Positions 9,506 through 64,000 of a stretch of 64,000 nt of DNA are shown in pieces. Below the pieces are notes generated by a model. That model saw only the letters and a list, made by a program, of their open reading frames with translations, was not told the origin of the DNA and made no database searches. The stretch is from Octopus vulgaris (Eukaryota). The translations under genes were made by a program, and so were the position numbers. The DNA lies in assembly GCA_951406725.2 (NCBI GenBank), contig OX597832.1, positions 67,394,001 to 67,458,000 of the forward strand, read 5' to 3'. Numbering within the stretch: the stretch's first letter is position 1; each line of letters starts with the position of its first letter.

Positions 9506-10409
9506 GTTTCTTGTTATTTTTGCTATCATCTTAAAGCACTGAAAAACAGCGAGGGTGCATAATCAAAATTACGTCGGATCAAATGCTGGGCGGTATTTCT
9601 TTCAGCTTTCTACGTTCGGAGTTCAAATACTTCTACGATTACATTTGCATTTCATATTTCCAAGATCAATAAAATATAATGCAAGTGAAGTATTGCAGCA
9701 GATGTAATAGATTTTCCCCCTTCCCCCACCCTACAAGTGCTCGCCTTGTGCTGAAATTTGAAACCCTCATACTAAAGCATGAAAAATCGGCGAAGTAGCA
9801 AAGATTTTAGAGATTCAGAAAACATTTTTTGCGGTATTTTCAGGCGCTTACCGATCTGAGTTCTAATCTGTCACGAATAACTTTGTCACTATGCTTTAGA
9901 TCACATAATAATACTCCTCAAGAACCAGTGTTGATGGAATAGATTTATACATAAAGCGCAACGGGCCACGATCGTGGCCGTCAGGCACAGGTCGACAGAC
10001 CACGATCGTGGCCCAGATAGATGCATTTAATTTATGGGCGTCTGTTGGGGTCTAATGACACTCAAACACTCCGATACCCCCCAGAATGCAAGAGGACTAA
10101 TAGTTCTACTAATGACTTTTCAGATGAGGTAAAATTTGCCGCCATTATATACCAAGAAGATATTTTAACTATTTTTGTGTTTTTTTTAATGTGTGCATGG
10201 TAATCTCATTTTCATAAAAGTTATCAGCATAAAAGTTATCTATCATAAAAGTTATCAGCAGTGCAAATTACAGCGCTTTATGGGTTAATACACCCCAACT
10301 CACAATTACGGGTACTATACCTAAACAAAGAAACCAGTGTATTAAACAATGAAAGAAAATCTTGCTACGCTGAAATATATTAGTATTTTACGAAGCATAT
10401 AACTTTTTC

Positions 10410-10616: not shown

Positions 10617-10765
10617 ACGAAGCTTTTCATAATGAAAATGAAAACCAAACTATTATGAATCTTGGATGAAACATATAATGCCGCTAAATTATACTGAATT
10701 CTAAATGGTGACAGTCATTGGCTTGTGTCCATGATGGAGCGTCACTTTCAAGTAAACAAATATAT

Positions 10766-11157
10766 ATTCAGATGGCTAGTACACTTTACGTTGTCGAGCG
10801 GTTACTGTTTACATCTCGTTCGGAGATTTATTAATGCTTTCAGACAGTTTTTCTAAATCAGTGACAGTGGCTGCTGGGAAAAACATTAAATAGATATTCG
10901 CAAACAGGTCTCTCCAATCGAAAATCGGTGATTACCGTACGTTGACGAGAGGCAAATACCTCGAAACTATAGTCCGTATGTATCACTTAGGTTTTCGAAT
11001 ATCCCTTTGCGAATATCAGAAGGGTAACGAAAGTGTGTCTAAAGCCAGCTGGAGATGATGATCTCCTGGGGCTATAAGCTTCAGTAACACCCACTCCCAG
11101 TGGCTAACCACATTCAGATGGCTAGTACACTTTACGTTATTCTCGTTCGGAGATTAA
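10766..11157 (+). mobile_element. Retrozyme-like unit: 346-bp monomer with terminal direct repeat and one hammerhead
   Basis: attcagatggctagtacactttacgtt repeats at 10766 and 11112. Contains the hammerhead at 10936-10980. Homologous to the reverse complement of the 47447-48248 unit. Confidence 0.75.
10936..10980 (+). ncRNA. Minimal type-I hammerhead ribozyme (U3 core variant)
   Basis: cgtacg-TTGACGA-gagg[caaata]cctc-GAA-actatagt-C-cgtatg: stems I and II pair, stem III is palindromic, cleavage triplet GUC at 10972-10974. Confidence 0.8.
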
Positions 11158-11483
11158 TTATATACTGTTTGTTCTTATATTTATGATGGTAGAAAAATTA
11201 TCAATCAGTATTGATCGAAATGTCAGACAAGGAGGAGTTTCCATTTTCAAGAGGAATTCCCAAAGAGAGTTGCTAAGTTGAATATCAGGAAGATGTTCTG
11301 TAAATTGCACATCAAAGCACCTGCCGCATTATTCGATAGATCGGGCACTACACATACAAGAGTTTAAAGTTCCTACACGCATTAACAATAATGTTTGCTT
11401 GAAGCTCTTTATCGGGCGTGGGCGCTCCATGTACTTTTAGATTTTCAATCACGACAGACTAAGGAGAGTGTTATAGCACTAAG

Positions 11484-30046: not shown

Positions 30047-33000
30047 CTATCTCGCATTTGTGAGGGACCTTTTATTCGCCACATTCTTCCACCTTTCATC
30101 GAACACTTTCTTACTCAGGCTCCTCCTCTCCAGTTCTATTTGTCTTTTCAGGTGGAATTTAAAGTATTCCACCAGACTAGAACCGGAGATGAAGTCGCCT
30201 GTTAGCATCCCTTTCACCCGCGTCTTCCATACTGCCTGTTTCGCAATTGAAACCACAGAGAGAAAACAATTCTTACCTTCTTTCGTTAAGAAATCAGGTG
30301 GGCTGATTTTCACAATGGATTCGGCTGATAGCTGTACTCTTCCTCCACTTGACATCAGTTGTTCGGCATAAACCCACATGTCTGTCACCTCCGGGCACCG
30401 CACGATCGCGTGCGAGACGGTTTCCCTGTCTCGCCCACATCTCGCGCAGGTCGGGCAGACTGGGGCACCATGCCTTGCAAGTTTATCCCGAACAGGTAAG
30501 GCTCCTCGGTAACACTGCCAAGCCAAAGACTTCTGGGAATTATCCAGTGCCTTCGGCCCGAATGTACGTTGGAACAGACTGGCCAGCTGATTATCGTCGA
30601 AACCTAGGGTTTCCCCTAGCGTATCATCGTTACCGGCCTCTACAAAACCTCTATAAAACACAGCGGTAGAACCACTGCCGCAGGCATTGCCCGAGCGACG
30701 GAATAGTCGGAGTGCCTTGCGGCACTCCGTGTACCATGTACCCAACTTCGATCTACGATTATACCAGTCTTCCCGTCCACCGAAACTGGTGAACCTGGGA
30801 AACATCTGCTTCGCCAGCGGAGACCACACCCGTTCACCATCCAGATGGAGCCACAGGTGTCTTAGCCTCAGCGCATTTCTGCGCATCATTAGCCACGGCA
30901 TCCCTAGTCCACCCTGTAACGGTTTTTGACAACAAATAGAGCGTTTCACAAGTGGTTTCGAGCCCTTCCACAAAAAGTGAAAGAGCTGTCTCTCCAACTT
31001 GTTCAACCACGAATCCGGGCAAGGCACGACGGCAAGGCGGTAGGTGATCACCGATGCGATAAACACATTGGCTACCTCCGCCCTACCTTTCAGGGATAAC
31101 CACCGCCAAGACCAGGTCTTGACTACTGCGGTCACCCTGCTCGATACCTCGCTCCAGTTCTTCTCTATTTGGAGGCCTGGTCCAAACCAGACCCCGAGCA
31201 ACTTAATCGGGCCCTCCGTCCAACGTCCCACGACGCTGTCTGGAGGCATCGACTTGCCTCTCCAGGTGCCGAGTTGCAAGCCGACTGACTTTTCACGATT
31301 AACCTTTGCTCCTGTCACCGTCTCGTAAACCTCTATGGCCTTGCCTACTTTACGTAGGAGGTCCATTTCGGTCACGATGATAGTGATGTCATCCGCGTAC
31401 GCCGAAACCGACATTCCACGACCTGGCTGCCTCGGGATGCCACTCAGTTTTCGCAGCAGCGGCTCGAGAGCCACTACATACAAAAGCGGGGAGAGCGGAC
31501 ATCCCTGACGGAACAAGCGTTTGACCTTGAACGGCTTAGAAATAAAGCCGTTCACCCGAACTACCGAGTCGACGTTGTCATACAATTCTATGATCCACCT
31601 GAGGAAGCCAAGACCCAGGCCGAACTGAGCCAGGACGGACACCAGGTAACGATGGTCGACCCTATCGAAAGTTTTTGACTGGTCTAAATGGACCACTGCC
31701 TCTCCCTTGCCGGCATCGTTATCCATTCCCTCTATCGTGTATCTAATTAGATGGAGATTATCCTGAATGGTTCTGCCCGGTACGGCGCACGTTTGCGCTT
31801 TCCCGATCAGTCCATTCGCGACAGGCGCCAATCTGATCGATAACACTTTGGCCAAAATCTTCAACTCTGCGTTAAGCAGAGTGATGGGCCTGAAATTATC
31901 AATGACGTCCCCCTTGCTCTGGTCCTTCCTGACTAGTGTCACCACTCCCCGGTTCACAGATCTGGGTATGAACCCATTCTGCTGCCAGTTCGCGTAGACG
32001 TTCGCCAGTAAGTCCCCGAACAAGTCCGGCATACTTTTAAAGAGCTCGTAGGGCAGACCATCCAGCCCCGGCGCCTTACCCGCACCGCAGTCTGCCATGG
32101 CCTCTATTACCTCCTCAGGCGTGATCGGCTTCTCACTACACTCCGCGTCCTGCCCCGAGAGCCGCGGCAGTCCGTCAAGGAGGTCCGTAAGGTCCCTCCT
32201 CTCATCCGGCCCGCCGCCACCCCCAAAGAGCTGGGCGAAGTGGTCCTGAAAAGCTTGACACATCTCCTCGGGCTCGTCTGTCAACTTACCTTGTTGGTTC
32301 GTCAGAGATCGAATTGTGGCATCGTTGCCACGTTGGGCTTCCACCACTCGGGCCCATCTCGCGGCATTAATTCCTTCGCTCCCCATTGTACGTTGTCTAG
32401 CTCTGACAATGCAACCCATGTGTTTGGCTTCGAGGTGCTGGTTTAAAACCAGTCTCTTGGCCTTCACCTGAGCCGCGTTGCCAGTTCGCATTGCTTCCTC
32501 TAGGTCCTTAACTAGAGTAGTTTCTTTTCTAGCCTCTCTAGCTACGAGATCTATACTATATCTAATGGACTCATATCTTATGGCTCGCTTGAGGGCATAC
32601 CACCATTTGTTATTGATAATGGAGCCGGTCATGGCCCTCTGGATCATTAACCTAATCCTGTCACTGTACTCCTTAATCGCCAAAAGGGACGTATTAAGTT
32701 TCCAGTAACCAGGACCTCTATTTATCTTATCTACGTCTAGCTTACAGGTGACCATCTTGTGGTCACTGTAGCTGACTATGTGGAGCTGTGGACTCTTAAC
32801 TAGGTTTCTATCTACCTTCCTAATTAAAATCCTGTCTATGTATGACCTTGACGATCCGTCGCTGTTTGTCCATGTCCACAATGGAGCGTCCGGATGTTCC
32901 AGTCTATATGGATCTACCAGCTCAAAACGTCTTAGTAGATCCAGGAAGCAAGCATTTCCTTTCCTGTCTGTTTGCGAGCCTACACAGTCTACCCGCACAT

Positions 33001-33439
33001 TGCAGATTGTGTTGTAGTCTCCTAACATTACTAAAGGGCACGATGTACTGAGAAACTTCTCCAGGTTCCGAAAATACTCACTATTCCCTTTATTATTGGG
33101 GGCGTAAACCGCAACCAGTCTGATTGTCTTACGACTGCTGAACGTCAAATCAACGACGACCAGCCTACCTTCTGGATTTGCAAAAATCAACTTTTTCCCA
33201 GAAACCCGGTTCTTTTTCACCAGGACAAACACCCCACTTCCGCCGACCGACGGGTTCGGAGAGATAATTCTCTCGTAACCGTCGAACAGCGGGAGCAGAT
33301 CTCTTGGCCCTTTTAACCGGGTTTCTGTGGCAACATCAACATCTAAATCCCGTGACCTGATGTCATTTAGGAAGCGCCCTTGCTTCCGGCTCGCCATCAG
33401 GCCACGCACATTTACGCATCCTACACAAATACGAGACAT
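30047..33439 (-). CDS. ORF2 polyprotein: APE endonuclease + reverse transcriptase + C-terminal zinc finger (1130 aa)
   Basis: APE motifs NVRGL, ATETRL, VYAPN, LGDYN, IDRIL, SDH. L1/Tx1 linker GPGYWKLNTSLL. RT motifs APGLDGL, RPITLLN, DQSKTFDRVDH, RQGCPLSP, YADD. Zinc finger CARC...ETVSHAIVRC. No stops. Confidence 0.96.
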   Translation of the reverse strand: MSRICVGCVNVRGLMASRKQGRFLNDIRSRDLDVDVATETRLKGPRDLLPLFDGYERIISPNPSVGGSGVFVLVKKNRVSGKKLIFANPEGRLVVVDLTFSSRKTIRLVAVYAPNNKGNSEYFRNLEKFLSTSCPLVMLGDYNTICNVRVDCVGSQTDRKGNACFLDLLRRFELVDPYRLEHPDAPLWTWTNSDGSSRSYIDRILIRKVDRNLVKSPQLHIVSYSDHKMVTCKLDVDKINRGPGYWKLNTSLLAIKEYSDRIRLMIQRAMTGSIINNKWWYALKRAIRYESIRYSIDLVAREARKETTLVKDLEEAMRTGNAAQVKAKRLVLNQHLEAKHMGCIVRARQRTMGSEGINAARWARVVEAQRGNDATIRSLTNQQGKLTDEPEEMCQAFQDHFAQLFGGGGGPDERRDLTDLLDGLPRLSGQDAECSEKPITPEEVIEAMADCGAGKAPGLDGLPYELFKSMPDLFGDLLANVYANWQQNGFIPRSVNRGVVTLVRKDQSKGDVIDNFRPITLLNAELKILAKVLSIRLAPVANGLIGKAQTCAVPGRTIQDNLHLIRYTIEGMDNDAGKGEAVVHLDQSKTFDRVDHRYLVSVLAQFGLGLGFLRWIIELYDNVDSVVRVNGFISKPFKVKRLFRQGCPLSPLLYVVALEPLLRKLSGIPRQPGRGMSVSAYADDITIIVTEMDLLRKVGKAIEVYETVTGAKVNREKSVGLQLGTWRGKSMPPDSVVGRWTEGPIKLLGVWFGPGLQIEKNWSEVSSRVTAVVKTWSWRWLSLKGRAEVANVFIASVITYRLAVVPCPDSWLNKLERQLFHFLWKGSKPLVKRSICCQKPLQGGLGMPWLMMRRNALRLRHLWLHLDGERVWSPLAKQMFPRFTSFGGREDWYNRRSKLGTWYTECRKALRLFRRSGNACGSGSTAVFYRGFVEAGNDDTLGETLGFDDNQLASLFQRTFGPKALDNSQKSLAWQCYRGALPVRDKLARHGAPVCPTCARCGRDRETVSHAIVRCPEVTDMWVYAEQLMSSGGRVQLSAESIVKISPPDFLTKEGKNCFLSVVSIAKQAVWKTRVKGMLTGDFISGSSLVEYFKFHLKRQIELERRSLSKKVFDERWKNVANKRSLTNAR

Positions 33440-33600
33440 TTACTTACCTTTATGTCGGTGTCCCTGTTGGTCGGGGGGGTGAAGTCCGCTTTAATAAGTG
33501 ACTCGTGTACATCGAGCCGCGGACCCCTTATGTCCCCTGAATACTGCGCATTTAAAATATTAAAGTTTAGCAAATCCATTTTGTATATTTCTACATTTTT

Positions 33601-34992
33601 TTAAAATTTTCTGTGCGTTTGTATTTTTTCAGCGGTTGGGATGTTTCCCATCCCGCTGCTTAAACTGTCGTTGTCTTTGTTGATGGCTGCATAAACTACT
33701 TGGAACTCCGTGATTTTCTTTTGGGGGCTTTGTGGGGGTGATGGGGAGAAGGGGGAGGAGGAGTTTGGGGAGGAGCACGGGGAGGTCATTTGGAGGGGAG
33801 GGTAATGTATGGTACTGTGGGGTGGGGGTGATTCGTGTTGGTCTGGGGGGGTCTTATCTTTTTTTTCCTTTTGTGGAGAACCGTGTTTGGGTGGGGTGGG
33901 TTTCCCCCCCTGGGTGTTACTCTTTTTTGTATTATGGTTGGGTATATTTACGTCCGTACTTTTTCTTTTTTTCATTTTTCTGGGTTTCACGAAATCGTCA
34001 TCCCCCTCTTGTTTCTTTCCTTCTTCTGTTTCCGTCGTTTTCTTCCTCCTCTCCTCTTCTTCAGCTTTTTTCCTTGCTTCTTCTTCTTCTTTCTTGCGGG
34101 TGGGGCATTCTGCTCGGATGTGGCCCTTTTCTCCACACCCGTAGCATCTGGGCTTACGCCCTTCGACCACCACCCGCAAGTTTATTTCGTCGTCGAAATT
34201 AATGAATTCAGGCACCTCCTCTAACGTTTCCGGCGCCGCTTGCACTATTATTTGTAGTGCTTGTCCCTTCCAATTCTCCTTCTGGGTTCTGACGATGTCT
34301 ATAATGTTGATTTTTTCTTTCAGTCCCATAAATAGGGCTGGAATGAGGCTTTCTACCTCAATTTCTGGTAGTATGTCGTCTATTTTGATTTTTATTGTTC
34401 TTCTTCCCATATACGAGGGGAGAAGAATTATATCTGTTGATTTTAGAGGGTTGATCGAGTGTTTCCTCGCCTGTTCCTCCTCTTTAAAGTAAACCATTAT
34501 GGTTGCATACTTCTTACCCCATGTAACGAAATCAATGTCTGTCCATATTGGTTTGAGACACTTTTCAGCCTGCTCCTTTGTTATTTTTTCTATTTTTCTT
34601 TCCTTAATTACAAAAGATTTAAAAATTACCGCTTTCTTCATGGTGCTGGTTTTTATTTCTTGTGGGAGGGTGGCTTTTATGTTGTTCCCCTCCCTTTTGT
34701 ACCTGTCCTTGTATTTGTCGTAATCAATGTCCTCTGGTAAAATATGTTCGGTTTTTCTGCCGGCTGCGGCTGCGAAGTTAACCGTTTTTTTCACGTTTTC
34801 AACTGCTGGTACACTTGTTTTCGAATTTTCTGCTTTCATCATATTTTTTTCCTGTGTAGGTGAACCTACAATATTTTTTTCCTCCTTTGTAGGTGAACCT
34901 ACAATATTTTTTTCCTTTGTAGGTGAACCTACAATATTTTCTTTTTTTGAAGGTGAACCTTCATTGGCAAAATGTTCAACTGTTTTTTCCAT
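33601..34992 (-). CDS. ORF1 Gag-like nucleic-acid-binding protein with CCHC zinc knuckle
   Basis: CYGCGEKGHIRAEC knuckle; lies directly upstream of ORF2; ATG at 34992. The frame stays open past the TAA to 33421. Confidence 0.88.
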   Translation of the reverse strand: MEKTVEHFANEGSPSKKENIVGSPTKEKNIVGSPTKEEKNIVGSPTQEKNMMKAENSKTSVPAVENVKKTVNFAAAAGRKTEHILPEDIDYDKYKDRYKREGNNIKATLPQEIKTSTMKKAVIFKSFVIKERKIEKITKEQAEKCLKPIWTDIDFVTWGKKYATIMVYFKEEEQARKHSINPLKSTDIILLPSYMGRRTIKIKIDDILPEIEVESLIPALFMGLKEKINIIDIVRTQKENWKGQALQIIVQAAPETLEEVPEFINFDDEINLRVVVEGRKPRCYGCGEKGHIRAECPTRKKEEEEARKKAEEEERRKKTTETEEGKKQEGDDDFVKPRKMKKRKSTDVNIPNHNTKKSNTQGGKPTPPKHGSPQKEKKDKTPPDQHESPPPHSTIHYPPLQMTSPCSSPNSSSPFSPSPPQSPQKKITEFQVVYAAINKDNDSLSSGMGNIPTAEKIQTHRKF

Positions 34993-35217
34993 TTTCACAC
35001 AAATGGATTTTTTTTTTGTTAGATTGTGTCAAAACACACAATATATTTCACACTATTTCCCCTCCTTAAAGGAGGGGAATAACAAAATTTTCCTGGTTCA
35101 AAAACCAGTTAAAGTTCAGTATAACAATTTAACAAACAATTTTTAAACAAACAATTTCAACACAATTTTAACAATATTTTAGCTCACGTGAAAAAACACC
35201 ACCGACTCCTTCAAAAA

Positions 35218-36977
35218 TTCTTTGCCGAATTTCTGATTTTTTATTACCCACTAAGGGGCGACACAGAGGGGGACAGCAAAAGACATGGGGACATAGAACA
35301 TTATAATTAAACTTTATGAACATGAATTGTTAAACGAAAAAAATGATAAAATGAAAGCGATACCAACGGCCCCGTCCGTCAGCATCACTTACTTGTCCTT
35401 TGTTTTTCATAGTCACTTGAATGTTCTTTGCCAATACGAATAAATTCCATATCCATTCTTACTCCGAAATACTCATCCATATTTTCCACGAATTCATCGC
35501 TCATTCTTATATCTTTCACCTCCCAATTCTCCCTTTCACACCTCCCCATAAACTCACCTATGTTCTTCTTTTCAATCACAGCATACCTAGTCTCTCCAAC
35601 ATCATACCATTTATACTCTTCCATTAGACTTTTAACTTCTTTCTGTTCAGTCATAGTACAAATGTACGGCCTGGGTTCGCTTTCAATCTCTTGTGTGTGT
35701 GTATTCTTTTTTTCTTTTGTTTTCTTGTTGGGGGGAGCGGGTGGGCTCAATGTCTGCATGGATAGGGTGGGACTCAGAGGGTGTGGGTGGTTTTGGGGTA
35801 GATTGGAGTTCCATATTATTTTCTTTTCCACGTATTCTTCTCCTCCTCTTACTTCCAGCTTCCTTCCATTTCTGTGTATTCTCTTCCTCTGTTTCCTTCT
35901 CCTCTGGTTTCTGCTTCTCTCTCTCTGGTTCGGAATCCATTTCTTTCCCTGGGGGAGGGCAGAAGGCTCTTATGTGACCCCTCAGGCCACACTTGTAACA
36001 ACGTGGAGCCCTGCCCTCCACCCACACTCTCATGATCACGTCTCCCAGTCTGATGCTTTCCGTCAGGTCCACCAGTACCTCGGTCTCTGCCTGTACGTTC
36101 AGCTCCACTGTTACGCCTCTCCAGCCCTCGGACTTAACCGAGGCATGGAGAATATCCACCTCGTCCTCGTGGCCGCTGATCACAGCCGCCACAATCCATT
36201 CTGCCTCCACGTTTGGTGGCACTCCCTCCACCCTTATTCGTGTAATCCTCCTGTTTAAATACGTAGGTAATAGGGTTACCTTTTCTGACTTCACCGCCTT
36301 CGCCGCCATCTTCCTCGCTGCAGACTCAGTTTTGAAATGCACAACTACGGTACCGTACTTGGATCCTCGAGTCAGAAAATTTATTTCCTCCTCAGTTCTT
36401 CGCAGGGCTTCCTCTATCCATTCCATGGTTACAACTTCTACCCTCTTCCTTTCGTTTGCGAACACCCTGTAAATAATCGTCCTCTTATCATACCATTCTT
36501 TTCTCCTGGGTGTCGGTGATAGTTCCACCTCACCGCTTTCCTTTTTCATGTATTTCTGGTAACTTGCCAACTTGGCCATGTCGACCCTTTTCTCTTCCGC
36601 CTTCTTGGTTACACCGGCATAGGTATAACCCAGCTCATCTTCCAAATTCCTTGCTGCCATTTCTAGCTCCTTCTCAGACGTAGGCAGGTCTGATAAAGAC
36701 TCGAAAACTCCAGCCCTTTCTTCCATCAGCTCCATTGCAATTGCCCGTTCCAGTTCCTCATCTGTCGTGGACAAGTCTGTTAGAGACTCATAGTCCATTT
36801 CCTTTCTGTCTGACAGACCGAAAACGGCCGCCAAAACAGAAAAAGTGTAACGCGCTGAACGAGCGATACGCGAAACCGCGTCAACGCCGTTCAGAATTTC
36901 CACAACAACAACAACGCTTTTTGTTCTTTTTTACCGAATTTTACGAGCGTAAAAAAACACGACCGACTCCTTCAAAA
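35218..36977 (-). mobile_element. Non-autonomous ORF1-only Tx1-related element (HAL1-like), unit 1, 1760 bp
   Basis: Near-identical to 36978-38745. Encodes an ORF1 homologue, has no EN/RT, and shares terminal sequences with the autonomous element. Confidence 0.85.
35385..36798 (-). CDS. ORF1-like CCHC protein of unit 1 (main frame 36798-35683; C-terminal part in a second frame to 35385)
   Basis: CYKCGLRGHIRAFC knuckle. RGSKYGTVVVHF / LLPTYLNRR / VWVEGRAPRC align with WGKKYATIMVYF / LLPSYMGRR / VVVEGRKPRC of the autonomous ORF1. Confidence 0.8.
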
Positions 36978-38745
36978 TTCTTTGCCGAATTTCTGATTTG
37001 ATTTTTTATTACCCACTAAGGGGCGACACAGAGGGGGACAACAAAAGACATGGGGACATAGAACATTATAATTAAACTTTATGAACATGTATTGTTAAAC
37101 GAAAAAAAATGATAAAATAAAAGCGATACCAACGGCCCCGTCCGTCAGCATCACTTACCTGTCCTTTGTTTTTCATAGTCACTTGAATGTTCTTTGCCAA
37201 TACGAATAAATTCCATATCCATTCTTACTCCGAAATACTCATTCATATTTTCCACGAATTCATCGCTCATTCTTATATCTTTCACCTCCCAATTCTCCCT
37301 TTCACACCTCCCCATAAACTCACCTATGTTCTTCTTTTCAATCACAGCATACCTAGTCTCTCCAACATCATACCATTTATACTCTTCCATTAGACTTTTA
37401 ACTTGCCTCTGTTCAGTCATAGTACAAATGTACGGCCTGGGTTCGATTTCAATCTCTTGTGTGTGTGTATTCTTTTTTTTTCTTTTGTTTTCTTGTTGGG
37501 GGGGAGCGGGTGGGTTCAATGTCTGCATGGATAGGGTGGGACTCAGAGGGTGTGGGTGGTTTTGGGGTAGATTGGAGTTCCATATTATTTTCTTTTCCAC
37601 GAATTCTTCTCTTCCTCTTACTTCCAGCTTCCTTCCATTTCTGTGTATTCTCTTCCTCTGTTTCCTTCTCCTCTGGTTTCTGCTTCTCTCTCTCTGGTTC
37701 GGAATCCGTTTCTTTCCCTGGGGGAGGACAGAAGGCTCTTATGTGACCCCTCAGGCCACACTTGTAACAACGTGGAGCCCTGCCCTCCACCCACACTCTC
37801 ATGATCACGTCTCCCAGTCTGATGCTTTCCGTCAGGTCCACCAGTACCTCGGTCTCTGCCTGTACGTTCAGCTCCACTGTTACGCCTCTCCAGCCCTCGG
37901 ACTTAACCGAGGCATGGAGAATATCCACCTCGTCCTCGTGGCCGCTGATCACAGCCGCCACAATCCATTCTGCCTCCACGTTTGGTGGCACTCCCTCCAC
38001 CCTTATTCGTGTAATCCTCCTGTTTAAATACGTAGGTAATAGGGTTACCTTTTCTGACTTCACCGCCTTCGCCGCCATCTTCCTCGCTGCAGACTCAGTT
38101 TTGAAATGCACAACTACGGTACCGTACTTGGATCCTCGAGTCAGAAAATTTATTTCCTCCTCAGTTCTTCGCAGGGCTTCCTCTATCCATTCCATGGTTA
38201 CAACTTCTACCCTCTTCCTTTCGTTTGCGAACACCCTGTAAATAATCGTCCTCTTATCATACCATTCTTTTCTCCTGGGTGTCGGTGATAGTTCCACCTC
38301 ACCGCTTTCCTTTTTCATGTATTTCTGGTAACTTGCCAACTTGGCCATGTCGACCCCTTTCTCTTCCGCCTTCTTGGTTACACCGGCATAGGTATAACCC
38401 AGCTTCTCTTCCAAATTCCTTGCTGCCATTTCTAGCTCCTTCTCAGACGTAGGCAGGTCTGATAAAGACTCGAAAACTCCAGCCTTTTCTTCCATCAGCT
38501 TCATTGCAATTGCCTGTTCCAGTTCCTCATCTGTCGTGGACAAGTCTGTTAGAGACTCATAGTCCATTTCCTTCTGTCTGACAGACCGTAAACGGCCGCC
38601 AAAACAGAAAAAGTGTAACGCGCTGAACGAGCGAAACGCGAAACCGCGTCAACGCCGTTCAGAATTTCCACAACAACAACAACGCTTTTTGTTCTTTTTT
38701 ACCGAATTTTACGAGCGTAAAAAAACACGACCGACTCCTTCAAAA
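36978..38745 (-). mobile_element. Non-autonomous ORF1-only Tx1-related element, unit 2, 1768 bp
   Basis: Tandem duplicate of unit 1 with scattered substitutions and homopolymer indels. Confidence 0.85.
37151..38567 (-). CDS. ORF1-like CCHC protein of unit 2 (main frame 38567-37449; C-terminal part in a second frame to 37151)
   Basis: 372-aa ORF nearly identical to unit 1, overlapped by a 149-aa downstream frame. Confidence 0.8.
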
Positions 38746-39474: not shown

Positions 39475-39668
39475 TGTGATATATATGTATATATATAAAG
39501 TGATGACTTTTTACCAGCATAATGTAGCAATCCCAGGATGGGATAAATATTATTGTTACTTAACGCCAAGAAAAATGGTTTCTAGCTGGGTATAGGACAC
39601 AAAAGCTCTGTGTCCATTATGTTTTCGAACAGGGGAGACTAGCACCTCCACCCAGCACAACCTACCAT

Positions 39669-39709
39669 CCACGGACTAGTTTTAGGGTTATTGCACATTA
39701 TCAGCGGGG
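39669..39709 (-). ncRNA. Degenerate type-I hammerhead-like motif
   Basis: Reverse complement: ccccg-CTGATAA-tgtgcaataaccct-AAA-actagt-C-cgtgg. Palindromic stem III and GUC are kept; core and stem II are mutated. Confidence 0.4.
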
Positions 39710-40207
39710 AGTAGTTTGGCTTTCTAGATGTCGCAGCAAATTTGCTGTCTAATATATATAGAATTCAGAGTGACAAACTATATACGTACATATTTACATG
39801 CACACCTTTGCATAAACTGACGTCCACAAATACTTGCATGTGTGTGTATCATGAGTGTTTGTGTGTGCATATGTTTCTAGACTGTGTGTGCAGTATCTCA
39901 TTTATATTCGATATGTATTTATTCATTTCTGTGAAACTCGCTGAGCTCCGTCCAATTGTAAGTTATACGGACTGATACTACTATGTACTACAATGTACAG
40001 CCGATGCACACACAGATTTACACATTCTCACACAAAGCCTCACTTACAAATTCATACACGTATGTATATACATATAAGAAATTCGAAAAAACCGAGACAA
40101 TGACGTGTTGAAAATTGACTGAAGTGAAAAGTAGAACTCGAGAAAAAAATTACATAAAAATATAACTGACACACGATTAAACAGATATATAAATATATGC
40201 GTGTATG

Positions 40208-46527: not shown

Positions 46528-46616
46528 TTTAAATATATATATATAATAGAGAAAGTTGGCTTATTAGCAATGAGAACGGAAAGGCAAATTTAATAGAAGT
46601 CGCAAAATTAATAGAC

Positions 46617-46835
46617 GTCACAAAAATTGAGAGAGGGTACTGACTAGCACTGCTTTTCCTTACGATAAGAGTTAAACTAACTCAAATGCCACAAATGAAC
46701 TGTCTTATTGACTGACAAAGGGAGGTAAGTCCCTTTGTCAGTCATTAACAAAGTGCGTTTGTGGCTTTTGACTTAGTTGAACTCTTATTGTAAGCAAACG
46801 CGGAGCTAGTCAGTACCATCTGTCACTTTTGTGAC
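46617..46835. repeat. Imperfect ~220-bp palindrome (hairpin with ~105-bp arms)
   Basis: Centre tgactgacaaaggga-ggtaag-tccctttgtcagtca. Outer pairs ggtactgactagc/gctagtcagtacc and gtcacaaaa/ttttgtgac. Confidence 0.85.
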
Positions 46836-47661
46836 CTCCCTCTCTCTCTCACTCTGAGTCTCCCTATATATATTACATATATATATATATATGAGGTAAC
46901 TTCTTTCCATTGTTCAGGTGGCTTGCACACCTCAATGTCAACTGTAATTTAACCTTGAACATCTCGAACTCAATTAACTGTTCATTAATATTTCAATCAC
47001 TTTCTGGAGAAAGCAAACACAAAACATCTCAAATTAAATCAATCGTACGTAAATAGACACACACGCTCACAGCCACACGCGCATGCGTGAATGCATTCTC
47101 ACATACACACATAGACGCATATTAGATATTTTGGTTTCTCCCAGTCAATCATCTGAATTCATTTCTGAAATACATTCATAGTCTTTCATTGGTAATGCAT
47201 TTCTTTGCATATATAAATGTGAAATATTTCCGGTCAACTTCATTTTGGAGCTCGAAGTAAGGTATAGGATAATGCTGAAGCATTCAACTTCAAGTCCATC
47301 GTGCCTTATAGGAGAAACAACTGTAAACTAATGCAGCTCATATTACGTTTGTTTTGCTATTGTAATTGTTTGTAAACACGCCCACACATACATGCATTAC
47401 ATGCAAAAACACACGCACACTCATATATATATATGTGTTTATATATAGCAATAATAATTCTCTAAATGAGATATAGACAGTGACTGCTCCATAATATAAG
47501 GGATATTAGCCAACTGAATATGGCTAGGGACAGGGCAGGGTGGTGGGGGTGTCACTGTTGCATTTAGCCCCAGGCGAACATCAACGTCACCAGATAGGCC
47601 GACGCCATCACGGCGTCCTCTATCTTGCAAAGGGAGATCATTCACCAACAAGCGGATACAA

Positions 47662-47707
47662 CACACGGACCTAGGTTTCAAGGTGTATTGCCTATTATCA
47701 ACGTGTG
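47662..47707 (-). ncRNA. Minimal type-I hammerhead, U3-A8 core variant (unit 1)
   Basis: Reverse complement: cacacg-TTGATAA-t-agg[caataca]cct-t-GAA-acctaggt-C-cgtgtg. Confidence 0.72.
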
Positions 47708-48017
47708 GTAGGCATCGCTTCTCGATGAACGACCAACAGTGCAAGATATATATAAGGATTTTCAAGTAAATACATTTACTGATTTCGAAAATCCGTTCGA
47801 CAGCAATAATAATTCTCTAAATGAGATATAGACAGTGACTGCTCCATAATATAAGGGATATTAGCCAACTGAATATGGCTAGGGACAGGGCAGGGTGGTG
47901 GGGGGTGTCACTGTTGCATTTAGCCCCAGGCGAACATCAACGTCACCAGATAGGCCGACGCCATCACGGCGTCCTCTATCTTGCAAAGGGAGATCATTCA
48001 CCAACAAGCGGATACCA

Positions 48018-48063
48018 CACACGGACCTAGGTTTCAAGGTGTATTGCCTATTATCAACGTGTG
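48018..48063 (-). ncRNA. Minimal type-I hammerhead, U3-A8 core variant (unit 2)
   Basis: Identical motif to 47662-47707; stem I can be extended (tacca/tggta). Confidence 0.72.
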
Positions 48064-48290
48064 GTAGGCATCGCTTCTCGATGAACGACCAACAGTGCAA
48101 GATATATATAAGGATTTTCAAGTAAATACAATTACTGATTTCAAAAATCCGTTCGACAGCAATAATAATTTTCTAAATGAGATATAGACAGTGACTGCTC
48201 CATAATATAAGGGATATTAGCCAACTGAAAATGGCTAGGGACAGGGCATATATTTATAAATACACACACACTCATATATATATATATATA

Positions 48291-48509
48291 TTTCTTTACT
48301 ACCCACAAGGGGCTAAACACAGAGGGGACAAACAAGGACACACAAGGGGATTAAGTCGATTACATCGACCCCAGTACTTAATTAACGACCCCGAAAGGAT
48401 GAAATGCAAAGTCGACCTCGGCGGAATTTGAAACCAGAACGTAACGGCAGACGAAATACCTCTAGGCATTTCGCCCGGTTTGCTACCGATTCTGCTAGCT
48501 CACCGCCTT
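48291..48509 (-). mobile_element. tRNA-derived SINE with Tx1-like 3' tail
   Basis: tttctttactacccacaaggggctaaacacagaggggacaaacaaggac, then the SINE core, then the head end gctagctcaccgcctt. Confidence 0.82.
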
Positions 48510-48512
48510 ACA

Positions 48513-53231: not shown

Positions 53232-55351
53232 TATATATTCAACCACGTGCTTTCACACACCAACTTTCTCACCTATATATAAAACACGTGAGACCGAAAA
53301 TGCCGCAGAAGACTAATACCTCGGATAAAACTACAAATGAAGACATACTTAAAGAACTTAAAAGTATTAATGCACAACTCATTACCTTAAATAACAAAAT
53401 CGAGGACTCAAATCTACTCGCCCGGGAAAGGAAAAACAGTGAAGACACAACTCGCTACACTGACTAGGTTAGTAATGATTTACAACTGTTATACACAACA
53501 CTAAATTCAATTTTCATTAACAAATCCGACAATAAACAACACACACCAAATGAAACACACCAGGACATACGCACTCAAATCAACCCAACAAAAAGAAAAA
53601 TAGGAAACATTTGGAATACAAACCTGCACAATAGAAAACTCGCCTTCTGGAACATGATAAAAGATTCCAACAAAGCAGATATATACGAGGGATGGATGAA
53701 CGCAACTTCAATTATCCTCCCACGCAAATTCCAGATAAAAATAATACCCAACGAACCTGACGGACAGAGAACTATTAGGGAATGGTCAGCTCTATCCAAT
53801 TTAAAATCAGAAATAGAACTACTAAAACTTAGGGCCTCCACAAATGAGAAAAAATATAAAAGCATCGACGAGGAGATGCACAATGAAATACAAAAACAAA
53901 CAGAGGGACAACCCCTCGAAAATACACTAAATCGTTGGAAGGAAACCTAGGAAAAAAGCAACGATTTCTTCCAAAGATATGCGTCAATTTTCAAAAATGA
54001 ATTGGGTACAGATAATCCCTTTCTTAAGAAAATTACAAAAAATAAAAAATAAAACCGAACAACCCACAAACCACCCCCAACTATCCTCCATACACTAGAA
54101 ACAGAATTCACCCACAACCAACATTTTCGAACCACGCAAGACTTAACAGGAAACAAGCTGACAGACAATGCGTCTATGAAATAGATTACACCAAAAACAG
54201 AACACACCAACAATATCCTAATACCAGACCCAACCACCACATAACAGCACAAAGCAACACCAGAATAAGAAATACACCACACACAAGTCGCTACTACCCC
54301 ATGAACCAAAATTACTGGTCCCCACCGAACACAAGACAAACGCAAAAAAACACTAAGTCAAGCAACATCCCACATACAAGCAATTCGAAACAAAAATATT
54401 TCACATACAGACATTTTACACACACCACAAACGAAAACAACCATAGATTCCCACACACACACAACAATCGGAGGCAACAATACCACCGTTCCCCCGATCC
54501 AATATCACACAACCTCACAGACAACTCATACAAACAAAATTACACCCAACATTTTTTAGCCCGGGACCAGAGACACCAGGACACAGGCTGGAACCTAGTA
54601 ATAAGGAAAAACCGAAGATAATCAACCTTTCAACCAAACCTCACTCTAACATAAAAATTGACATCCTCTCAAAAGGGCTCAAATTTACGCCAACTCCACG
54701 CAGAGCCAACCTAAATGAAATCAAGGATAATATAACAGAATTCTGCTGAAAATTAAGACTAGCAGAAGCATCAACCAGTTTCAATACTGAAGATGAATTA
54801 CTAGTCAAGAACAAAAGTGAACACATCCCCCACAAAGGAAGAAATAAAGATCTTGACGAATTCTGCAGCCACATTGAGAACTTTCCCTACCATGCTATAC
54901 ATAAACAGACAGTTAACTCATATTTTAACACTACACAGTGGAAGGAACTGATATAAGTTCAAAATGAAGATATAACCATTAAGGAAGCAGACAAAGGAAG
55001 TGCAGTTGTAATAATGGATACATCATACTATAGAAATCTTGTAATTTCCTTGCTTGATGACAATCAACATTATGAAAAAATCACCAACTACACTCCGCAA
55101 AAAATAATGAAAACTATCTTCACTAATTAAAACCCATGAAAAGGAACTAACAACCAAAGAGATTGACTTTCTAACAAACTTTAAAGGCAAGCCTCTTCTA
55201 TGGACTGCCAAAAATACATAAAAGCCAAATTATAAATGAAACCATTAAAAAATCACCAAAGACATACATACACACACCTAACTCGGGGGACCTAAAACTA
55301 CGACCCATTGTAGCTGGCCCAACCTGTGAAACACACATATTAAGTCTATTT

Positions 55352-55957
55352 ATGGACATCCTCCTGAAACCCTTCCTTAAACATATCGATAGCCATATCA
55401 CAGATGACTTGGATATGTTAAACCGCCTTCCAAAAAAAGTCAAGGAAGAAATAATCATGGTTTCATTTGATGTAGTTAATTTATATACCAGTATAGCTCA
55501 TAATTATGGATTAGAGGCAATACAGTTCTGGCTGGACCAATTTCCGGCAGAAATACCAAAAATGATCAGTAAAGAATTCATTACTAAATCGGTTGAATTC
55601 ATCCTACATAATAACCACTTCATGTTTGACAATACATTTTACTGTCAACAATCCGGAATTGCTATGAGTACAAGGGCAGCACCAGTCATTGCGAACCTAA
55701 CAATGGGCTACCTGGAAATAATTGTTTACCAGGAATCTTCATCAACCTTTGGAAACCCCCTCTCTCAATACATAAAAGAGAATTGGAAACGATTCCTGGA
55801 CGATTGTTTTATACTCTGGAATGAAAACACAGATAAACTCCTAAAATTCAAAAACCTATTGAACGGCATCAACCCAAATATACAGTTCACAACGGAATAC
55901 AACCAAAAGGAGCTTCCATTCTTAAATATACTAATTAAAAAATTAACCTTAAAATAG
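55352..55957 (+). pseudogene. PLE reverse-transcriptase core fragment
   Basis: SFDVVNLYT, SGIAMSTRAAPVIANL, WKRFLDDCF. Confidence 0.88.
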
Positions 55958-56394
55958 AAACATACATTTTTTTACAACGCCACAGACTCCAAACAATACC
56001 TACTATTTGATTCATGCCACCCAAGACACACTAAAACAGACATCCCTTTCAACCTTGCAAGAAGGATATGCACAATAGTGTCAGAACTAAATACCAGAAA
56101 CTTTAGACTACAAGAACTCAAAAACACCCTAATTGACAGACACTACCCAGCTCAACTCATAGAGGATGGGATCAGACGTGCAACAGAATTCAACACAACA
56201 ACACACCTTCCCCGAAAATACTGCCTTACATATCCACATACAACCCCATAAACAAAGAAGCCTTCACCATCATCACCCACAATTTACCAATACTTCATAA
56301 GGACCCCAAATTAAAGGAATTTCTAAACATACATAAAATCATTAAAAGCTACAAACAACCTAAATCACTTAAAAAGATTCTCACAAAGGCAAAA

Positions 56395-56856
56395 TTGCTT
56401 TCTGAAATTACGGTTGCAAAAGTAAAAAAATGTGGTAGACCAAATTGCGCAACATGCCCAAAACTTCTAGCAGGATCAGAATTCTTCTTCAAAGAGGGAC
56501 AAAAATTCAAGAGCAAATCTAATTTTACTTGTGCTTCTGAAAACATAATTTATGTCATAAGATGCTCGGGCTGCCACCAAAACTACGTGGGGTTCACGGG
56601 ACTATCACTCAGATGTAGATGCACACTGCATCGACAACAGATTGCATTCCTAGAATATAGAATGATACCCTTTAGTGAGCATATTGAGAAATGCGCAAAG
56701 CAACTACTACCACAATTTTTAATCTTTCCATTTTATCAATGTGCTATTGGAACACCAACACAAATTAGACTAAACAAGGAAACATTCTTCATTGAAAAAT
56801 ATAAGCCCAAACTTAACCACTCTAACATTCTTACACAGAGAAACTCACCCCATTAA
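56395..56856 (+). pseudogene. PLE GIY-YIG endonuclease fragment
   Basis: CGRPNCATC...FTCASENIIYVIRCSGCHQNYVGFTG...RCTLH...KETFFIEKYKPKLN. Confidence 0.88.
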
Positions 56857-57132
56857 GTAAAAGAGGCAACAAATATAAAGCGATTATCTCCCTTACACCG
56901 GAAGAAATCACTTATTACCTCCCCTTACCTGGAACACTTCTTTACACTTCATAACGAAATCATAACACGATGTTTTGAGAAATTTGAAAAGTTAACATGA
57001 AGCCGGTAATTTCTTCAAAAACTATGTCACTGTATGAAATAAATTTTATAATATTCTTCAGACATAATGGCTCAAATATATTTTTTAACCTTTTAAAACA
57101 AGCCATCTGTAGTTTTTTCACTTTTTACTATT

Positions 57133-57187
<55 letters not shown>

Positions 57188-57793: not shown

Positions 57794-57845
57794 TAATAAT
57801 GATAATAATAATAATAACAATAATAATAAGAAGAATAAGAATAAT

Positions 57846-57935
57846 ACACCGGGGAACGTTTAAAGGATACACCGGGGGACGTTTAAGAGGATACACCGGG
57901 GGACGTTTAAGGATACACCGGGGGACGTTTAAGAT
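57846..57935 (+). repeat. Four tandem copies of a 22-24-bp unit
   Basis: acaccggggg acgtttaa(g/a)ggat x4, immediately after (AAT)n. Confidence 0.9.
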
Positions 57936-63399: not shown

Positions 63400-64000
63400 T
63401 CCAGCAAAGGACTATCCACTTCACTGAAAACAAAATCAGAAATATGAGTAAAAAGATAAGCAATTGGGAAACATCAGGACCTGATGGTCATCGTTCCCAT
63501 ATCTAGCCTTACGGGATTGACACTGACTCGAGTTTCTTGGTGTTTACCCGTCCACAGCGTGTGTTAATCACCAGTTAGTGATGATAACTCACTTCACTCA
63601 CAAAATACTATATGCTTTTTCCAGCGACGTACCGTCGCTGATCTCGAAAAAGGAGAAATAAGCTATATTAAATCTCTGATCGTGATATAAACAGTAGCAC
63701 TACGGAACCGTAACATATATTTTCCAATCAAGTGTAGCGTCCTATACAGGACAGTGCTACTGACGTTTATAACCCCATGAGGACATCTCTTAACGGCTAA
63801 CATTCTGTGTCCTTTTTCTAGATAAAGACCAATGCCTCAGAGAAATCGAGGGAAATGACAAGATTAGCACTTGGAGATGGCTAAAAAATAGGGATCTGAA
63901 AGGATTCACTGGGGCATTGATAGGCAACACCCAGGAACAAGTTCTGAGAACTAATTACACCAAGTTCCAAATAGATAAGTGTAGAATGAGTGGCAGTAGA
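63400..64000 (+). mobile_element. Degenerate R4/Dong-like fragments
   Basis: SNWETSGPDG (cf. NWKAPGPDG) near 63460; TWRWLKNRDLKGFTGALIGNTQEQVLRTNY near 63870-63960. Confidence 0.6.

Follow-up and report, generated by a model that had tools for sequence, protein, structure and literature searches.

A tandem octopus repeat with U3-A8 hammerhead motifs and the sequence features of a metazoan non-LTR retrozyme

Introduction

Metazoan non-LTR retrozymes consist of tandemly repeated, non-coding units of 150-450 bp, with a GC content below 50% and one type I hammerhead per unit (PMC7229834). Their units measure 350-390 bp in mussel and 330-350 bp in axolotl, and target duplications, when present, are long (>4 bp). 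One axolotl element, Rtz_353, carries a hammerhead (HHR_Amex2) with a U·U mismatch at the base of helix II and a short helix III, and yields a circle of about 350 nt; this hammerhead cleaves poorly as a monomer (22% in 1 h) and far more efficiently as a dimer (PMC7229834). Plant LTR retrozymes have type III hammerheads within LTRs, a unique centre and a 4-bp target-site duplication.

Hammerheads are also found in Penelope-like elements (PLEs). These elements are biased towards microsatellites, and their insertions form 5′-truncated partial tandems with hammerheads in the terminal pLTRs (10.1101/2021.04.23.441226). The pLTR motifs are minimal, mostly single, and lie at the ends of coding elements; in the Cercyon PLEs of Schistosoma they combine a U3-A8 pair with a palindromic helix III and dimer-dependent cleavage (PMC4209133). 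Two type I motifs joined into a double hammerhead are a known arrangement in animals (PMC4209133). PLEs have been proposed as the helpers of retrozymes, and Li, Clavereau and Pollet describe retrozymes as non-autonomous PLE derivatives, arranged as dimer arrays with a hammerhead in each full unit, in genomes that also contain a PLE; their 2026 survey, of 31 vertebrates, 3 insects and 1 coral, includes no mollusc (bioRxiv 10.64898/2026.07.22.740005). The literature consulted yielded no cephalopod retrozyme, but the supplement of PMC7229834 or Lunse et al. 2017 may list an octopus family. The word ribozyme is absent from the main text of a 2026 octopus repeat annotation (PMC13282606).

Results

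A head-to-tail array of a non-coding unit

The DNA analysed here (the window) is a 64,000-nucleotide stretch of Octopus vulgaris contig OX597832.1, from an animal genome rich in microsatellites. Tandem Repeats Finder (TRF) identified an array at 47447..48248, minus strand, with a period of 356, 2.3 copies and 98% matches (Table 1). The two full units differ by three substitutions and one indel (98.7% alike; 98-99% across the array), the GC content is 44%, and no unique central region separates the repeats, which form a pure head-to-tail tandem. A search for ORFs in the array gave an ATG frame of at most 51 codons and a stop-free stretch of at most 123 codons. The array is a genuine head-to-tail repeat of a 356-base non-coding unit. 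These results bear out the initial annotation, which had described about 2.25 near-identical tandem units here and seen no credible ORF.

The array lies among other repeats. Some 600 bp to its left is a 225-bp imperfect palindrome (46614-46838), MITE-like, 82% self-complementary, with a fold z of -16.7 and a single copy in the window. To its right, at 48300-48512, lies a SINE-like repeat with six more matches in the window, which we take to be an octopus SINE.

Table 1. Coordinates of the array, its hammerhead motifs, related loci and neighbouring features in the window.
Feature	Position	Strand	Details
Array, order on ribozyme strand	47447..48248	-	91-bp terminal piece, then full units of 356 and 355 bp
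Unit 1	47447-47801		355 bp
Unit 2	47802-48157		356 bp
Partial unit	48158-48248		91 bp
Upstream type I hammerhead	48018..48063	-	U3 48057, A8 48052; helix I 6 bp, U10.1·U11.1, helix II 3 bp; predicted cut after C17 (C48024)
Helix III palindrome of upstream hammerhead	48032-48025	-	
Downstream type I hammerhead	47662..47707	-	Core as upstream; U3 47701, A8 47696; predicted cut after C17 (C47668)
Predicted monomer, possible circle	47668..48023	-	356 nt, prediction only
High-depth segment	47507..47596	.	Depth exceeds that of the remaining unit about 10-fold or more in X16 and X17; several-fold in X1 and X2
Direct repeat, left copy (candidate target-site duplication)	47416..47434	+	19 bp, CA/TA microsatellite, 12 bp off the array
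Direct repeat, right copy	48267..48285	+	19 bp, 18 bp off the array
Relative (10.9-kb relative)	10760..11161	+	About 1.15 units of 346 bp; 274/395 aligned bases identical to the array (69%)
Hammerhead of 10.9-kb relative	10936-10980	+	U3-G8, G10.1-C11.1, palindrome ACUAUAGU
Decayed relative	63519..63787	-	Core C3..G8, A6 lost, palindrome ACUCGAGU; profile E 4e-18 and 0.03
Decayed relative (39.7-kb relic)	39495..39763	-	Core C3..U7 A8, U10.1·U11.1, G12 lost, palindrome ACUAGU; profile E 5e-6
Broken Penelope-like element	53236-57135	+	Between (TA)n tracts, 5 kb from the array; several stops or frameshifts
RT piece of Penelope-like element	55175-55957	+	Weak Pfam RVT_1 match, E 5e-4, below cut-off
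Cys-rich linker and GIY-YIG piece of Penelope-like element	56137-56856	+	GIY-YIG neighbours in the Atlas

A variant type I hammerhead motif in each full unit

On the minus strand, each full unit carries the motif CACACG-UUGAUAA-U-AGG(CAAUACA)CCU-U-GAA-ACCUAGGU-C-CGUGUG, with a helix II loop of 7 nt. All core positions other than U3-A8, among them G12-A13-A14, A15.1-U16.1 and H17, are intact in both units, and the 3-8 pair stays Watson-Crick. Positions 10.1-11.1 are U·U in both copies, in place of the usual G-C pair. In the upstream hammerhead, helix I extends past a UAC bulge into a longer stem; in the downstream one this extension is weakened by a change at 47660, which has zero depth in all four public runs described below and looks private to that copy. 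The predicted cuts, after 48024 and 47668, are spaced by 356 nt.

A relaxed type I descriptor run on both strands of the window gave three matches, the two array motifs (48057 and 47701, minus) and one at 10942 (plus). The same descriptor gave three matches in total in 200 block-shuffled windows; none of these three combined a helix I of at least 6 pairs with a fully palindromic helix III, as all three real matches do. The hammerhead motif is far above chance. The motif as first annotated, with UUGAUAA and GAA between cacacg and cgtgtg flanks, is thus found in both full units, together with the U-U first pair of stem II, the spacing of the predicted cuts at 47668 and 48024 and the UUGACGA at 10942 that it had been compared with.

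The array motifs share the 45-position layout of the Rfam family RF00163 (Hammerhead_1), from which they depart by U3, A8, the U·U and the 7-nt loop 2. Two narrow Rfam scans of them gave no match at E up to 10, the gathering score for RF00163 being 34. The 10.9-kb relative, which matches all positions and the consensus loop 2, scores 28.3 bits (E 6.5e-5), below the gathering score.

Set beside the systems outlined above, the array shares with metazoan non-LTR retrozymes the tandem non-coding structure, a GC content below 50%, a monomer predicted to pair with itself and type I hammerheads in two or more consecutive units, and its unit length matches those of mussel and axolotl. In every sequence-level feature that could be compared the array agrees with that class, which is expressed as unit-length linear and circular RNA; for the array such RNAs are a prediction. 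It differs in the U3-A8 and U10.1·U11.1 of its core, a pairing of changes that we did not find in the description of metazoan non-LTR retrozymes in PMC7229834. The axolotl motif HHR_Amex2 is alike in its U·U, short helix III and (predicted, here) circle size; U3-A8 is not mentioned in the account given of it and the host is unrelated, the likeness being one of described features. The Cercyon hammerheads resemble the array in their U3-A8 and palindromic helix III, dimer-dependent cleavage being a prediction only for the array. Unlike pLTR motifs, the array has a canonical layout within a self-contained non-coding tandem. Like the elements of Li, Clavereau and Pollet it has a hammerhead in each full unit of a dimer array and a PLE in the same genome; a parent pLTR, in contrast, was not found within the window. 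Being type I and purely tandem, the array falls outside the plant LTR class.

Related loci and helix covariation

The window holds four loci of this family (Table 1). The two decayed relatives were recovered with a profile built from the array and the 10.9-kb relative and run on the window only. Helix I carries a UAC bulge at three of the four loci and UAA at the fourth, and loop 2 stays near the Rfam consensus; these elements would be the candidates for the loop 1/loop 2 tertiary contact of type I hammerheads. Elsewhere in the window, the stretch 9850-10205 folds far better than its shuffles (z -6.7) and contains a repeated palindromic word near 9965-10015.

When the five hammerheads of the window were aligned, 86.6% of 97 cells were paired and 11 of 20 pairs were changed on both sides, in a set of five rows of which two are nearly identical and with a structure drawn from the same sequences. 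Neither value was reached in any of 500 shuffles, and slid partners gave 26-46%. Helix III is a perfect palindrome in five distinct sequences: ACCUAGGU, ACUAUAGU, ACUCGAGU, ACUAGU and ACCAUGGU. The last of these is a double change at 47672/47673 with 813/1020 of the depth in run X1 and 361/3332 in X17, and none in X16 or X2 among the variants listed. Since the two central bases of helix III cannot pair in a monomer hairpin, pairing between two copies most readily accounts for the covariation, and we read the five palindromes as the mark of selection for double-hammerhead cleavage. The covariation of the helices and the palindromy kept across relatives support the original description, in which the locus is a retrozyme-like array of the metazoan non-LTR kind whose type I hammerhead is of the dimer type.

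Copies of the unit in public sequencing runs

Four of 24 public runs (X16, X17, X1 and X2) were matched to 47447-47892 at 80% likeness, with 807, 207, 51 and 8 contigs fitting the unit, respectively. X16 and X17 are of unrecorded kind and X1 and X2 are RNA by guess, none of the runs listed being on record as RNA. The data are contigs, without strand, ends or level, in which circles cannot show; depths are sums over contigs and do not stand for copy number, and the variants and pieces considered are 40 of 82 and 32 of 1083, respectively. In X16, 468 of the 807 contigs are at least 95% identical to the unit, and the subfamily of the array is, by this measure of likeness, young and numerous.

Depth is markedly uneven along the unit (high-depth segment in Table 1). 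The depth of this segment and its loose ends resembling the 10.9-kb relative indicate that it is common to larger, more abundant sister families. A hairpin within or overlapping the segment, with a loop kept in the 10.9-kb relative, lies near the 5′ boundary of both intact insertions. The segment is a candidate promoter or reverse-transcription signal. Metagenome contigs scanned for the hammerhead pattern and for the shared segment gave no match to either.

At position 8 of the core, G has 5621/28173 of the depth in X16 and 497/2137 in X17, counts biased towards the reference, and A8 makes up about 80% and 77% of summed contig depth, respectively; C at position 3 has 532/23121 and 17/1851. Judged by these depths, U3-A8 is the majority state among copies near the array in the two largest runs. 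The deepest contig of X1 (one contig, 813/926 of the depth) has G8 with C3 and C4, and the deepest of X2 (one contig, 15.2/22.1) also has G8. The X1 contig (record 2, 47554-47831) reads C3-C4-G5-A6-U7-G8-A9 together with the palindrome ACCAUGGU; its U4C subfamily turns up at low depth in X16 and X17 too. A 303-nt X2 contig across the unit (record 27) retains U3 and A8. From the weighting of X1 and X2 towards G8, the A8 subfamily may be the less expressed one.

The proposal that A8 arose by CpG decay of the UUGACGA seen at 10942 does not stand up well: two substitutions separate CG from UA, A8 predominates in X16 and X17, and it recurs in the distant 39.7-kb relic, which also has U7-A8 and U10.1·U11.1, though it carries C3 and has lost G12. 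Decay in one step was rejected as the source of A8, position 7 being U at both A8 loci.

Neither core change is new by itself. U3-A8 is reported as a natural hammerhead variant, active in vitro (PMC3088659), and is present in about 1,300 Schistosoma PLE motifs (PMC4209133); U10.1·U11.1 is reported as the best tolerated mismatch at its position (PMC3088659) and occurs in HHR_Amex2 (PMC7229834). The two in combination were not found in the literature consulted, though Lunse et al. 2017 or the supplement of PMC7229834 may list such a core.

Among the variants listed, T>C changes outnumber A>G on the plus strand by 12:5, 11:6, 11:9 and 20:6 (p 0.027, 0.086, 0.37 and 0.0005) in runs that are not independent. 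The corresponding A>G excess on the ribozyme strand would be equally well explained by G>A decay of the array copy itself.

Predicted folding of monomer and dimer

Folded as a circle, the predicted monomer is more stable than its shuffles (z -4.6 on the ribozyme strand, -1.8 on the opposite strand), and so is the relative (-4.6). Fold z-scores were discarded as specific evidence, two of seven control stretches folding better still. The start and end of the monomer are predicted to pair into a long rod, which would bring neighbouring hammerheads together.

In cofolding without constraints, a pair of 70-nt copies of the upstream hammerhead forms a double hammerhead (-42.2 versus 2 x -19.6 kcal/mol), and two fragments of the 10.9-kb relative do likewise; cofolds with the downstream copy, bearing the private 47660 change, did not give the double hammerhead. 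For the full 802-nt transcript the predicted ensemble has both cores misfolded, UAGG being paired to CCUA, with probabilities of 0.001 for helix II and 0.0 for dimer helix III. Relative to the best fold, a forced double hammerhead is less stable by 7.6 kcal/mol and two single forms by 12.4, so that the double form is the better of the two by 4.8 kcal/mol in the whole transcript. Neither Mg2+ nor tertiary contacts enter into these models. Any cleavage would probably be slow and dimer-dependent. Because only one in nine predicted retrozyme dimers cleaved in a 2026 preprint (bioRxiv 10.64898/2026.07.22.740005), we put the predicted self-cleavage activity of the array copy at about even chances. 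Reads across the ligated junction were rejected as proof of circles, since in a head-to-tail array the ligated junction is identical to the tandem DNA.

Insertion ends and a Penelope-like neighbour

The array and its 69%-identical relative share their limits on the unit, the starts agreeing to about 20 nt and the ends to about 10 nt, and neither limit falls at the cut site (n=2 loci). On the ribozyme strand the 10.9-kb relative is built like the array, with a terminal piece followed by one unit. The 3′ end of the insertion lies about 220 nt beyond the cut site; this excludes a cut linear monomer as the template and is compatible with a circle, with a multimer left uncut or with subsequent duplication on the spot. 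Position 47447 is the exact start of contigs in X1 and X17, and contigs of X16 start no more than one base from it, which hints weakly at a recurrent boundary.

The array is flanked by two copies of a 19-bp word, a candidate target-site duplication; the word is of low complexity and offset by 12 and 18 bp, and these two occurrences are the only ones in the window. No target duplication was found at the 10.9-kb copy. The ends and the candidate duplication fit retrotransposition, probably carried out by a Penelope-like element, from an RNA that was circular or multimeric.

The window does contain a broken Penelope-like element (Table 1). Its RT gave no match to solved structures and its endonuclease piece none in Pfam. 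The unit shows no similarity to the ends of this element (in each of eight comparisons at least 11 of 100 shuffles score as high), and no convincing hammerhead was seen at these ends, one stretch near 57000 having a decayed look. With ends unlike the unit, this element does not identify the mobilising helper. At both intact loci the unit is not joined to an RT and GIY-YIG ORF. No tRNA genes were found in the window, and thus no promoter was identified.

Other retroelements are present as well. A LINE-like element on the minus strand (30047-38648) has an endonuclease/RT-like ORF, open over 1130 codons, with a 475-codon ORF upstream of it, and is preceded by two tandem repeats of about 1.77 kb, each with an ORF1-like frame of about 400 codons and a CCHC knuckle. 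Between an (AAT)n tract, which they follow directly, and a further LINE-like region lie four copies of a GC-richer repeat of 22-23 bp, at 57844-57934.

Discussion

The array is probably a 2.25-unit copy of a multi-copy non-coding family, namely a non-LTR retrozyme whose dimer would cut itself, yield a 356-nt circle and be copied by PLEs into microsatellites. In such a cycle, the minus strand would be transcribed as a multimer, in which two ACCUAGGU palindromes would pair into one 8-bp helix III, aided by the rod of monomer ends. Cleavage after GUC would follow, probably slowly in view of the U·U and the competing fold, and the 356-nt monomer would be ligated by a host RtcB-type ligase, as in published retrozymes. 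Target-primed reverse transcription would then start at a constant position inside the unit, some 220 nt beyond the cut, and proceed through 1.2 or 2.25 rounds of template, the copying into microsatellites being probably the work of a Penelope-like reverse transcriptase.

A less favourable reading of the same core is that the U3-A8/U·U subfamily is catalytically crippled and spread as uncut multimeric RNA or by DNA duplication, the working ribozymes being held by the G8 subfamilies. Two weakening changes fall within one core, misfolding of this core is predicted with high probability, and the runs guessed to be RNA are weighted to G8 contigs; eight of nine predicted Xenopus dimers remained uncleaved (bioRxiv 10.64898/2026.07.22.740005), and insertion ends that lie off the cut site do not need cleavage to explain them. 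However, the copies are young and numerous (98.7% likeness between units; 468 of 807 X16 contigs at 95% or better), the Watson-Crick 3-8 pair, the palindrome and helix I are all intact, the U·U-bearing HHR_Amex2 cleaves well as a dimer (PMC7229834), and U3 and A8 stand in the 303-nt contig of X2, one of the guessed RNA runs. We consider it unlikely, if still a serious contender, that the subfamily is crippled. The unit could instead be the pLTR, or 3′ end, of an autonomous Penelope-like element, left behind as 5′-truncated tandem copies: such tandems, pLTR hammerheads and the microsatellite bias are all PLE traits (10.1101/2021.04.23.441226), the first animal U3-A8 in the literature examined is that of PLE pLTRs (PMC4209133), 24 of 57 Xenopus retrozyme families match repeats that are nearly all PLE ends (bioRxiv 10.64898/2026.07.22.740005), and in X2 two contigs, 601 and 649 nt long, match just 50-60 nt of the unit. 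Against it, the unit closes on itself head-to-tail and is free of ORFs at both intact loci, its likeness to the ends of the window's PLE does not rise above that of shuffles in any of eight comparisons, and its layout is canonical (6-bp helix I, bulge and extension, 4-position helix II) where a PLE motif is minimal. All this makes the pLTR reading rather improbable; descent of the unit from a pLTR would be compatible with the retrozyme explanation.

The absence of an Rfam match on the array and the mere 2.25 copies might instead suggest ordinary local duplication of a minisatellite in which the hammerhead is a chance pattern. This has almost no probability left, in that 200 shuffled windows contain no strict match, five palindromes are found, and the 10.9-kb relative matches RF00163 at E 6.5e-5; it is the covariation of the helices that refutes it. 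A more far-reaching idea is that of a cephalopod superfamily in which the weakened core and the UAGG/CCUA off-fold would make cutting strictly dependent on dimers, and in which A-to-I editing of the rod RNA (A8 to G) would be copied back into the genome, the A>G excess on the ribozyme strand serving as the hint. We regard this as a long shot, and unless the editing idea is true what is known of hammerheads and retrozymes stays unchanged.

With the retrozyme explanation, animal retrozymes are probably extended to a cephalopod genome, where four loci within 64 kb make them look abundant and where Rfam misses them. This suggests that standard C3-G8 descriptors undercount such elements. The copies form a natural allelic series (U3-A8, U3-G8 and C3-G8 with C4; U·U or G-C; five palindromes) that could be used to test how weak a hammerhead still supports spread, and the matching ends some 220 nt off the cut site would offer a handle on where reverse transcription starts and on whether its template is circular or of another kind.
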